A stretch of DNA of 63,995 bases, the filler included, from Thelocarpon superellum (taxonomy: Eukaryota): assembly GCA_026025795.1 (NCBI GenBank). It is 8 parts of 8 records of this genome, joined end to end, with 100 filler letters (N's around TTAATTAATTAA, not from the genome) between each part and the next. Parts side by side here need not be neighbours in the genome. Positions count along the whole stretch, not along the records: positions 17,291 to 25,776 come from JAPEUG010000599.1; 7 more parts are not named here. One strand, written 5' to 3'. The position numbers and the translations under genes are program-made. This document shows positions 20,901 to 21,960 of this stretch, one piece after another. Within the stretch, counting starts at the first letter, position 1; each line of letters starts with the position of its first letter. Below the pieces are notes generated by a model. It searched no databases and was not told the DNA's origin. It saw only the letters and a program-made list of their open reading frames with translations.

Positions 20901-21960
20901 CGCAAGGATCGGACGCGAAGAACCGACGTGGGTAAGGATTATCCTTGCCCTCCGTGAACTCGATGCTCACGTCCGCAGAAATTGCCGACTCCTTGACCGT
21001 GGAATTCTCCAAAGTGCCTGGAATGACCTTTCATCGAAAGGTGCTCAAGTAGGTTCTTGCGTCTTCTATCGCTCGTCTTGCTTGATGGTGTGCGAGCGGA
21101 GCAAAAATCAAAAACATACAACAGCGGGGATTCGCTGGTCGTCACCGACCCAACTACTGGTCCGCCGATCTGTGGCTTATGTATGGCAGAGCGGACGGGA
21201 TGCCCAGTTCTCCACAGTCTATGGTCGTATGTGGAAGACGCAGCGAAGAAGCGGAATATAACGCGTCTGATGTCGACCGCTGCCATGGCTGCTGGGGTCG
21301 AGCGAATACGAAGCTGAACGCTAATTGTGTCGTGTATAGTTCCTTCAAGATCCAGACGTCGGCGATGCTATTAGATATGACGCTGAACTCGGCGTCGACG
21401 GTCCTCCGTAATGTCTTTGAGATCTTCTTCGAATGCGCCATGAAATTTTACCAATACGTCAAGGGCCTTGCCCCTGCCAAACAGCCACGCGCACAATTCT
21501 TAGAGCGTAAGTGGTTGAGCTACGGGCTCGTTCATGAACCACAGGCCGGCGTCACCGTCGCCCACCGCCTCGGCAAAGGAATGCCATCCGCTAACTATGG
21601 TGCCTTGATAGGGACGATCTTGGATTTGATTGACCTTGCCGTGGTCTTGATGAAAGGCCGCGGCCGGCGGGCGGTGCGTGACGGCTATCGCTGCACCATC
21701 ACCAAGGCGGAAGTGACGTGGTTCGTGAGCGCCAAGCGACTGGCGGTGACGAGGTGGCGCTAATCCCGAAGTTGCGCCTTAGGCTTGCGGGTACGGCATT
21801 CCACGCGGTCTTGAGACGCAAGCAGAGTAAGTATGGCATTGTCCTGGCCTGGTTGGCACGGCTGGTCGCTGCCAGCACGCCGACGATCACCTCCGCCCAC
21901 GGGCGCCTAGAACGAGCGGCTATCGAGGGACAACGGGCCTTCCGTCAGGGTCGATATTGA
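17999..21960 (+). CDS. TERT: Telomerase reverse transcriptase, 8 exons
   Basis: TEN (HLLCHGF, NYFQLSG), TRBD (KYMFPRQFGLHNVF, T motif FHVTESNVHRNRLLFFRHDVW), RT motifs 1/2 (RLLPK..FRPIINL), A (FAKVDVQACFDTL), B' (GIPQGSVVSTLLC), C (LRLTDDFLLI), E (FPYCG). Introns 18386-18440, 18757-18816, 19548-19595, 20932-20978, 21049-21339, 21507-21611, 21721-21782. Confidence 0.97.
21103..21113 (-). terminator. Pol III poly-T terminator of the 5S gene
   Basis: The minus strand reads TTTTGATTTTT immediately after the 5S 3' end. Confidence 0.8.
21114..21232 (-). rRNA. 5S rRNA gene (119 nt), antisense inside TERT intron 5
   Basis: Reverse complement: ACATACGACCATAGACTGTGGAGAACTGGGCATCCCGTCCGCTCTGCCATACATAAGCCACAGATCGGCGGACCAGTAGTTGGGTCGGTGACGACCAGCGAATCCCCGCTGTTGTATGT. 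Typical Pezizomycotina 5S ends that pair (ACATACGAC/GTTGTATGT), loop C CCCGTCCGCTC, and AGTAGTTGGGTCGGTGACGACCAGCGAA. Confidence 0.96.
21255..21261 (-). promoter_or_regulatory. TATA-like element 23-29 nt upstream of the 5S gene
   Basis: Minus strand TTATATT, at the position where Neurospora-type 5S genes carry an upstream TATA-like box. Confidence 0.6.

Follow-up and report, generated by a model that had tools for sequence, protein, structure and literature searches.

Does a complete 5S rRNA gene lie within an intron of the telomerase gene (TERT) of Thelocarpon superellum, is its presence there an accident, and could it influence its host gene? These questions arise from a sequence-only reading of 63,995 bases of DNA of this fungus (the whole stretch analyzed, referred to here as the window), which described an unusually long TERT intron occupied by a 5S rRNA gene on the opposite strand.

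The TERT gene of T. superellum and the 5S rRNA gene in intron 5

The TERT gene is located on the plus strand at positions 17999..21960 and is composed of 8 exons, with the start codon at 17999 and the stop codon at 21958-21960 in the orthologue-supported model. The annotated T. superellum protein P0001, which shows 100% identity to the exon 19596-20927, was reproduced exactly by joining exons across six introns. Introns 1-4 occupy positions 18386-18440 (55 nt), 18757-18816 (60 nt), 19548-19595 (48 nt) and 20932-20978 (47 nt) of the same strand, and are followed downstream of intron 5 by introns 6 (21507..21611, 105 nt) and 7 (21725..21771, 47 nt). The last of these is not used in the annotated model; both this intron and the last exon are backed by tblastn with orthologues. 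Pfam analysis revealed the domains Telomerase_RBD (PF12009, 148 bits), RVT_1 (PF00078, 40.6 bits) and TERT_C (PF21399, 33.2 bits, residues 941-1039), all above the cut-offs, and many of the 821 relatives found at E<=0.001 are named telomerase reverse transcriptase in their source.

Intron 5 (21049..21339, plus strand, phase 2) splits an Asn codon: exon 5 (20979..21048) ends with ..EIADSLTVEFSKVPGMTFHRKVL and the first two bases of this codon, and exon 6 (21340..21506), in which the TERT_C domain begins, opens with the third base followed by SFKIQ... The intron starts with GTAGGT, contains a branch-like CTAAT (21321-21325) and terminates with TATAG, and it therefore has the GT..AG borders, the branch-like motif and the in-frame junction (..FHRKVLN/SFKIQ..) of a spliceosomal intron. 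When nine TERT proteins were compared with the locus by tblastn, six of the orthologues (P0001, P0004, P0006, P0007, P0010 and P0023) were contiguous over 21048/21340, P0002 had 28 additional residues at this junction, and no HSP to the small exon was obtained with P0003 or P0013. The exon model and the six contiguous proteins bear out the earlier claim that the flanking exons splice in frame; the same model, exact for P0001, agrees with the claimed length of 291 nt, as against 47-105 nt for the other introns.

A search with cmscan placed a complete 5S rRNA gene within intron 5, antisense to TERT (21113..21232, minus strand). The match to RF00001 (72.0 bits, with a gathering score of 38; E 2.9e-13) covers model positions 1-120 of 120 and is the sole Rfam match in the whole window. 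The sequence-only reading was thus right about a complete gene, but not about its length, which is 120 nt in the model match instead of 119 nt. The TATA-like motif that it had read at -23 to -29 (TTATATT; 21255..21261, minus strand) was located, as were the putative Pol III terminator, i.e. the T runs TTT GA TTTTT directly after the gene (21103..21112, minus strand). The 5S gene itself ends with ...GTT, and its last two T extend the first of these runs to 5 T. 5S genes reportedly need a T run directly downstream and, in those of the Neurospora type, a TATA-like upstream box.

It has a negligible probability that the 5S gene was put into the intron by mis-assembly at a repeat. Unitigs do break within the 5S gene, and no single contig of the runs compared spans it under the 31-letter rule, by which neither of two contigs taken from X1, a run that probably represents the source sample, formally bridges a 5S junction. 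However, these contigs pass at single-copy depth from the TERT exons, one on each side, through unique intron sequence and 26 and 28 nt into the 5S gene, and a like architecture is present in independent assemblies of other fungi. Moreover, both flanks are consecutive in-frame TERT exons, and a chimeric join is therefore not credible. In X1 the 5S core is much deeper than its flanks and many loose ends occur at the 5S borders, which indicates that the same 5S sequence is also present at other loci; X1 contigs with other flanks indeed match it at >=99%. Two runs from another study (X2 and X3) contained the flanking TERT exons at >=99%, at a depth of 3-4 and with holes at 20928-21091 and 21256-21296. 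In X20, the only RNA run, the 5S gene alone was matched, by generic sequences with 3-5 mismatches per ~57 nt that are not assignable to the intron 5 copy. The 5S gene of intron 5 belongs to the dispersed 5S gene family of this organism as a genuine member, and is located in its single TERT gene.

Recurrence of 5S rRNA genes in TERT introns of other fungi

For comparison, 80 TERT loci of fungi, taken from metagenomes and totalling 666,540 bases, were scanned for RF00001. This revealed 12 5S genes in 8 of the 80 loci, all 12 of them within introns homologous to introns 5, 6 or 7 of the window; no RF00001 gene was found in the TERT flanks or in TERT introns 1-4 of these loci. Five lineages of Helotiales carry a 5S gene on the TERT strand in intron 5, and a Dothideomycete-like lineage carries an antisense copy in the following intron. 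The pairing observed in T. superellum therefore recurs among fungi, but in Helotiales it is sense, unlike the antisense arrangement in the window. Intron 6, empty in T. superellum, contains a 5S gene in loci L047/L048 and L054/L055, and intron 7 in L047/L048, in which three identical 5S genes are present, one in each of three consecutive introns. The intron 5 copy of T. superellum and those found within TERT introns of the Helotiales-like loci are 90-91% identical.

Lineages were defined as clusters at a tree distance of <0.10, in a tree made on a shorter segment, since an intron in the RT region would otherwise have removed many loci. Counted in this way, a 5S gene occurs in intron 5 in five of the 50 lineages covering the site and in intron 6 in two of 42. 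Among 63 other TERT loci, 38 likewise have an intron in the codon split by intron 5, and the intron is absent from the remaining 25. Intron flanks were not alignable between lineages, apart from the first 28 nt of the intron, common to L052 and L053, and 27 nt directly upstream of 5S copies 1 and 3 of L047; the number of independent gains therefore rests on parsimony. Empty copies of intron 5 have a median length of 59 nt. Some empty introns are oversized, i.e. intron 5 of the Helotiales-like L072/L073 (318 nt) and several copies of intron 6 (181-382 nt); no degenerate 5S or other RNA gene was detected in such introns at E<=1 (9 loci, 56,826 bases). No tRNA genes were found near TERT, either in the window or in 60 TERT loci, which indicates that the pattern is specific to 5S.

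Together, introns 5 and 6, including the oversized ones, account for 12,188 of the 666,540 bases (1.8%). Two independent events at about 2.8% (intron 7 included) would have a probability of about 8e-4, and about 6e-6 when the window is added (443 of 63,995 bases); both values are rough, assume uniform placement and ignore the removal of exon insertions by selection. The association of 5S genes with TERT introns is recurrent, being found in at least two further separate Pezizomycotina lineages, far above uniform placement. Since 5S genes recur elsewhere in precisely intron 5 and the two introns downstream of it, chance alone probably does not account for the pairing.

An A/T-rich motif is present at about -31..-23 in all 12 TERT-intronic 5S copies, and a run of at least 5 T ends 11 of them (the remaining copy, in L051, is cut by the contig end). 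RNAalifold analysis of nine TERT-intronic copies predicted 34 pairs, of which 13 keep pairing through changes on both sides and only one includes a true non-pair (A-C); the changes are compensatory, which argues that the copies are constrained genes. Positions 50-58, 64-68, 75-78 and 83-92 are largely invariant among these copies; they presumably correspond to box A, the intermediate element and box C of the internal control region bound by TFIIIA. As judged from its sequence, the gene in intron 5 of T. superellum is apparently working too. That it might instead be a silent relic, i.e. a 5S pseudogene that is not transcribed and is decaying where it lies, is highly improbable. Several non-canonical pairs marked in its Rfam alignment would fit such decay; yet the copy is full length, the other copies score 66.7-76.8 bits, a range that includes its 72.0 bits, it differs from them by compensatory changes, its TATA-like box and terminator are intact, and the X1 contigs with other flanks (>=99%) point to use of the same 5S sequence at other loci.

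An origin as a 5S-derived SINE or a retroposed pseudogene was rejected, as the intron holds a complete 5S gene only, with its own T-run end and no A-tail. The search for target-site duplications or terminal repeats round the window copy yielded only a 13-nt direct repeat (77%) and a 9-nt inverted repeat, both at chance level.

Traces of 5S genes within TERT were also found in annotated proteins. Translations of a 5S gene in the sense frame occur in two of 120 annotated TERT proteins (E about 1e-19), P0038 of Sclerotinia trifoliorum, directly after ..TFHRKVL, and P0047 of Ciborinia camelliae, about 36 residues later. Only five proteins of roughly 590-1960 aa embed these 5S peptides, and two of the five are the TERTs.

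Possible effect on TERT and competing explanations

The explanation that we consider best, and put forward tentatively as falling a little short of probable, is that a bona fide nested 5S gene, belonging to a recurrent association, is transcribed by Pol III and acts in cis on TERT. According to this explanation, Pol III would transcribe the intron 5 gene, and a stable TFIIIA/TFIIIC/TFIIIB-Pol III complex assembled on it would exert the effect on TERT, which is the weakest step of the proposal. The complex could stand in the way of Pol II elongation at the point where coding of the C-terminal extension of TERT begins, with head-on collision added in the antisense case of T. superellum, and/or the 5S gene might draw the TERT locus to the nucleolar periphery. 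The expected outcome would be a modest lowering of full-length TERT mRNA, in proportion to Pol III activity.

Since the orientation differs between lineages, an effect shared by all of them must act at the level of DNA or chromatin and not via RNA. Head-on collision, dsRNA or a pre-mRNA carrying antisense 5S cannot be the general principle because the Helotiales copies lie on the TERT strand. The comparison with other TERT genes thus spoke partly for the sequence-only reading, as 5S genes recur in introns 5-7, and partly against it, as that reading had built its regulatory idea on opposing transcription and on a complement of 5S RNA in the pre-mRNA. TERT also works without a 5S gene, as 45 of the 50 lineages have none in intron 5 and the intron itself is absent from 25 of 63 loci.

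Nested Pol III genes are familiar from other systems. tRNA genes are known to lie within introns, and in yeast tRNA genes and TFIIIB block or silence Pol II transcription whatever their orientation. These barriers resemble the TERT case in that Pol III genes lie in or next to Pol II units; the TERT association, in contrast, involves 5S genes only and no tRNA gene. By analogy with such systems and with those that follow, it is plausible that the 5S gene affects TERT in cis, either as a Pol III roadblock or by tethering the locus to the nucleolus.

The closest parallel is the mammalian Polr3e gene, in whose first intron an antisense Pol III unit (MIR) lowers host expression about 1.5-fold by interference (PMC5358760). 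According to the same paper, the MIR is conserved across species and acts as a roadblock that modestly lowers host mRNA and protein, a sense-oriented unit was without effect on a reporter, and orientation-independent TFIIIB roadblocks are cited for yeast. In both cases a Pol II gene has an intron that contains an antisense Pol III unit; however, that of Polr3e is a mammalian SINE, whereas that of T. superellum is a genuine 5S rRNA gene in a fungus, has TERT as its host, and has sense counterparts in other lineages. Given this reporter result, the Helotiales copies, being sense, may leave Pol II unaffected. A second parallel is ectopic 5S rDNA in mouse cells (PMC3261910), which brings about more nucleolar association and reduces Pol II transcription nearby. 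There, as in TERT, 5S DNA was inserted into an intron of a Pol II gene, with an effect that is in principle orientation-independent, but the inserts were multicopy transgenes in mammalian cells, unlike the fungal copies.

It is quite possible, though still some way from probable, that the intron 5 gene is a neutral passenger: an ordinary active copy that landed through the duplication and turnover of its family and has no effect on TERT. Large deletions in an essential single-copy gene are lethal, and the introns of such a gene would act as a safe harbour preserving copies for very long; recurrence would then trace back to one ancient TERT-linked copy that moved between adjacent introns, changed strand on one or two occasions and disappeared from most lineages. 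Protection from deletion in an essential gene could indeed be enough for a neutral 5S copy to last longer in an intron. Such a history is consistent with the local spread in L047/L048, where the identical copies occupy consecutive introns and copies 1 and 3 of L047 share their upstream stretch, with the absence of a 5S gene from most lineages, and with the oversized intron 5 of L072/L073, in which a copy may have decayed or been deleted. It also agrees with the 5S sequences embedded in a few non-TERT models, namely an APC2-like protein (P0121), a Pseudogymnoascus protein (P0122) and condensin subunit 2 (P0123). On the other hand, a neutral 120-nt insert would have to have been kept through the history of several classes despite the usual shrinkage of fungal introns, seen in the short empty copies of intron 5, or, alternatively, at least three independent hits would have to have struck this one set of three small introns (roughly estimated at about 1e-3 or less). 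Nor did the 666,540 bases around TERT contain a 5S gene elsewhere, whether in another intron or between genes.

Regulation at the RNA level appears very unlikely. It would require TERT pre-mRNA carrying the 5S sequence or its complement to be the active agent: the complement, as in the window, would pair with the abundant 5S rRNA, giving dsRNA, masked splice signals or siRNAs, and the sense copy of Helotiales would fold and bind uL18(L5) or TFIIIA, thereby tying splicing to ribosome assembly like the plant element P5SM. The Helotiales copies are indeed perfect 5S sequences within the TERT transcript, and in plants an L5-binding 5S-like element controls splicing of TFIIIA pre-mRNA, linking it to the 5S/L5 balance (PMC3378873). 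However, the two orientations would need two unrelated mechanisms, and the TATA-like box and terminator kept in every copy point to selection on Pol III expression instead of a pre-mRNA element. Furthermore, P5SM is a mimic located in an alternatively spliced exon and devoid of a Pol III promoter, whereas the TERT copies are complete genes with their own putative promoter and terminator, and no such exon is evident at TERT. A 5S mimic of this type was accordingly rejected for the window, where the gene is antisense to TERT, sense copies being confined to other lineages.

A more far-reaching form of the cis-acting explanation seems to us doubtful. It holds that the 5S gene of the 3′-terminal TERT introns is a selected cis-regulatory module, which arose repeatedly or was kept since early Pezizomycotina, the antisense copy of T. 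superellum being one independent origin. The Pol III/TFIIIA complex would then gate completion of the TERT transcript just before the C-terminal extension, and would couple telomerase output to Pol III activity and ribosome biogenesis.

Novelty, 5S evolution and TERT annotation

A literature search found no description of a 5S gene in a TERT intron or of intronic 5S genes in fungi, in line with the sequence-only reading, whose author knew of none. That a Pol III gene lies nested in an intron of a Pol II gene is known from other cases, and the 5S gene within TERT represents a new form of such nesting. An rRNA gene retained by several fungal families in one particular TERT intron, and found separately in further classes, would offer a natural experiment on interference between Pol II and Pol III at a dosage-sensitive gene. 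As the Helotiales include culturable and transformable species, the regulatory hypothesis is directly testable.

The 5S genes of filamentous ascomycetes are reportedly dispersed, preceded by a TATA box of the Neurospora type, and subject to birth-and-death evolution. The TERT-intronic copies resemble them in being single 120-nt genes that have an A/T-rich box near -25/-30, end in a T-run terminator and lie between unrelated flanks; their sequence stays alike between copies while the flanks diverge. Descriptions of dispersed fungal 5S genes reportedly concern intergenic copies with rapid turnover of loci. In contrast to such fast turnover, this specific TERT-intron locus is common to, and appears stable across, four Helotiales families or near relatives.

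Gene predictors either translate the intronic 5S gene into TERT models, as in S. trifoliorum and C. camelliae, or truncate the models, and TERT annotations in the affected fungi therefore need correction. A different irregularity was noted in the TERT model of the nearest relative, T. impressellum, in which 29 residues not derived from 5S are inserted at the junction and could not be parsed as a simple retained intron. A retained intron of ~87 nt, too short for a 5S gene, was rejected, since Ile is located before AFKIQ, where an ..AG/Y junction would give Ser.

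A 5S rRNA gene in intron 5 of TERT

A complete 5S rRNA gene is located on the minus strand at positions 21113-21232, nested antisense in intron 5 of the telomerase gene (TERT). It matches the full Rfam model (1-120) with 72.0 bits against a gathering score of 38, and is the only Rfam RNA gene of the 63,995-base window, in which no tRNA genes were found. In the 5S orientation, TTATATT is present at −29 to −23, and the terminal TT of the gene runs on into TTT GA TTTTT. The RF00001 match, the TATA-like box and the T-runs thus bear out, in all details, the structure proposed in the sequence-only reading. 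The flanks contain neither an A-tail, nor a SINE body, nor a convincing target-site duplication, which argues against a SINE or retroposed copy. The 5S unit is bracketed by a perfect 9-nt inverted repeat (TGCGTCTTC / GAAGACGCA, at 21058-21066 and 21234-21242), probably due to chance (we estimate that approx. 0.2 such pairs are expected in 331 nt), which we mention because the orientation of the 5S gene varies among lineages.

The host gene is encoded on the plus strand. Its exon at 19596-20927 matches, at 100% identity, a protein of 1052 residues assigned at source to Thelocarpon superellum (Thelocarpales, leotiomyceta incertae sedis in the NCBI taxonomy). For Telomerase_RBD, RVT_1 and TERT_C, this protein exceeds the curated cut-offs. 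Joining of the exons across introns of 55, 60, 48, 47, 291 and 105 nt reproduces this annotated protein letter for letter. Intron 5 (21049-21339, 291 nt, plus strand; GTAGGT, a CTAAT branch-like motif, TATAG) splits the Asn codon of residue 947, at the start of TERT_C (residues 941-1039). In tblastn comparisons, six of nine TERT proteins were contiguous across the 291-nt gap and one carried an insert; for the remaining two, the 23-residue exon had no HSP. The exon joining and the six contiguous orthologues confirm the intron boundaries exactly as first read. The TERT model of T. impressellum contains a 29-residue non-5S insert at this junction, which cannot be read as simple intron retention.

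The annotated model stops at 21763, ignoring a seventh intron of 47 nt (21725-21771, plus strand; GTGAGC..CTAAT..AAG). When this intron is spliced out, the frame remains open to 21960 and matches the C-terminus of the orthologues (..AF..VL.R.Q..Y..V..WL..). Since the orthologues support the intron, the public model is probably truncated, with the true C-terminus reaching 21960.

Contigs of run X1 (probably the source sample) enter the 5S gene from both TERT exons. On the exon 5 side they cross 64 nt of unique intron and cover a further 26 nt of the gene; on the exon 6 side they cross 107 nt of intron and cover 28 nt of the gene. These contigs are at single-copy depth (136-158); the 5S core is far deeper, and its numerous loose ends belong to other 5S loci. 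Under the 31-letter rule of the tool, the reach of 26 and 28 nt does not constitute formal bridging. The exons were found at ≥99% identity in two runs from another study, both too shallow at the intron-5 junctions. We nevertheless consider misassembly, a concern of the sequence-only reading, to be excluded for practical purposes, because the exons on either side follow one another in a single gene. Runs X2, X3 and X4 (moss metagenome label; a study other than that of X1) match the TERT exons at ≥99%; these independent samples therefore contain the same fungus or a very close one.

5S genes in TERT introns of other lineages

For comparison, 24 TERT orthologues were aligned and 377 relatives were confirmed in metagenome contigs, of which the best 80 were kept (80 TERT loci, 666,540 bases). 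With the window 5S gene as query, we obtained 12 matches in eight loci, all above the RF00001 gathering score. Mapping of the TERT exons placed all 12 in introns homologous to intron 5, 6 or 7 of the window, and no 5S gene was found in the flanks or 5′ introns across the 80 loci. The comparison of orthologues proposed earlier therefore revealed that the same and adjacent TERT introns carry 5S genes in other lineages (8 of 80 loci).

A 5S gene in sense orientation to TERT occupies intron 5 (461-607 nt) of loci L044, L052, L053 and L047/L048; that of L051 lies 305 nt into intron 5, at the contig end. Introns 5, 6 and 7 of L047/L048 each hold one of three identical, complete sense-strand 5S genes (3980-5613 in L047; 8997-10636 in L048), and every copy has a TATA-like box and a terminator of its own. 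The 27 nt immediately upstream of the gene are common to copies 1 and 3 of L047, pointing to a locally duplicated unit that comprises the 5S gene and a promoter of approx. 30 nt. L054/L055 carry an antisense gene in intron 6 (8845-8965, minus strand, 66.7 bits) and a normal intron 5 of 58 nt.

Intron 5 is present in 38 of the 63 loci having both flanking exons (absent in 25); introns 5 lacking a 5S gene have a median of 59 nt and range from 49 to 318 nt. In these 38 loci and in the window it hits the same Asn/Ser codon, sliding by one base: phase 1 (A|GT..AG|AY) in Leotiomycete- and Sordariomycete-like loci, and phase 2 (NN|GT..AG|N) in Lecanoromycete- and Dothideomycete-like loci and Thelocarpon. 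After near-identical loci had been collapsed (73 of the 80 loci in the tree, giving 56 clusters), a 5S gene was found in intron 5 of 5 of the 50 lineages covering the site, and in intron 6 of 2 of 42.

Introns 5 and 6 represent 12,188 of the 666,540 bases (1.8%, oversized introns included), a share that we raised to about 2.8% to allow for intron 7. Under uniform placement, two phylogenetically separate events (Helotiales and L054/L055) in introns 5-7 have a p of about 8e-4, and of about 6e-6 when the window, with 443 intronic bases out of 63,995, is added. Both values are our rough arithmetic and allow neither for purifying selection acting on insertions in exons nor for discovery bias from the window. 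None of the 60 TERT loci scanned contained a tRNA gene, so there is no general clustering of Pol III genes at TERT.

The TERT-intronic copies are constrained 5S genes, and several features argue against relics. An A/T-rich TATA-like motif is present at about −31 to −23 in all 12 listed copies, and a 3′ run of at least five T in 11 (L051 is cut by the contig end). Among nine copies, two-sided changes preserve 13 of the 34 predicted pairs, and a single cell is a true non-pair. Finally, the 5S genes of L052 and L053 are identical despite a TERT tree distance of 0.29 and intron flanks alignable over the first 28 nt only.

In a FastTree phylogeny of a 284-residue RT segment with 120 listed proteins, every sense-strand carrier fell inside the clade of named Helotiales: L044 at a distance of 0.07 to Lachnellula occidentalis (Lachnaceae), L051 at 0.11 to Cadophora gregata (Ploettnerulaceae), and L052/L053 nearest to Hyphodiscus (Hyphodiscaceae). 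L054/L055 were nearest to Vermiconidia (calcicola; Dothideomycetes, Mycosphaerellales), and Thelocarpon, apart from the Helotiales carriers, grouped with Phylliscum, Candelaria and Geoglossum.

Sense-frame 5S translations (E about 1e-19) were detected in two of the 120 TERT proteins. In P0038 (Sclerotinia trifoliorum, residues 1018-1056) the 5S peptide directly follows ..TFHRKVL and the model ends shortly beyond; in P0047 (Ciborinia camelliae, Sclerotiniaceae, residues 999-1036) ..FHRKVL is followed by approx. 36 intron-derived residues, the 5S and exon 6. This puts the sense 5S gene of C. camelliae at approx. 108 nt within intron 5, comparable to the 116 nt of L052/L053. As both models translate part of an intronic 5S gene as protein, their C-termini are wrongly annotated.

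The sense arrangement extends over four Helotiales families or near relatives and, by parsimony, is old there; L009 (53-nt intron 5) and the Helotiales-like L072/L073 (318 nt) would be losses. The oversized intron of the latter (about 2726-3043 in L072) may be a remnant of the lost gene; it gave no Rfam match at E≤1. The putative number of independent gains likewise rests on parsimony, because intron flanks are not alignable between lineages.

Possible effect on TERT

Pol II introns that harbour a Pol III gene are already known, and the arrangement here is a variant with a 5S gene in fungal TERT. The sequence-only reading knew of no description, and our full-text search, which covered few subscription journals, likewise turned up no account of TERT introns with a 5S gene or of intronic fungal 5S genes.

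Pol III presumably transcribes the intronic copy, and its bound machinery might in turn act on TERT in cis. The head-on collision or dsRNA envisaged earlier cannot be a shared principle, because the 5S gene is sense in Helotiales and antisense in T. superellum; a shared effect, if any, would operate via the protein-DNA complex. The closest precedent (PMC5358760) is the antisense MIR in a Polr3e intron, which cuts host expression about 1.5-fold via transcriptional interference; its authors also discuss orientation-independent TFIIIB roadblocks in yeast. In their reporter, the sense orientation was without effect, which weakens the case for the Helotiales copies. In mouse cells, ectopic 5S rDNA pulls loci to the nucleolar periphery and nearby transcription is lowered (PMC3261910).

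Almost as likely as such a cis effect is that the 5S gene is a neutral passenger of a deletion-protected intron with local hopping, the latter being demonstrated by L047/L048. Only for the sense copies can an RNA-level mechanism resembling the plant P5SM/L5 switch (PMC3378873) be envisaged.

Translated 5S in other annotated proteins

In a collection of 5.8 billion proteins, only five of approx. 590-1960 residues embed the 5S peptides of P0038 and P0047, two of them TERTs. Translated 5S is embedded in P0121 (APC2-like), P0122 (Pseudogymnoascus, acetyltransferase/glycosyltransferase domains) and P0123 (condensin subunit 2, Venustampulla), and 5S genes therefore occur inside or abutting non-TERT genes of Leotiomycetes as well.
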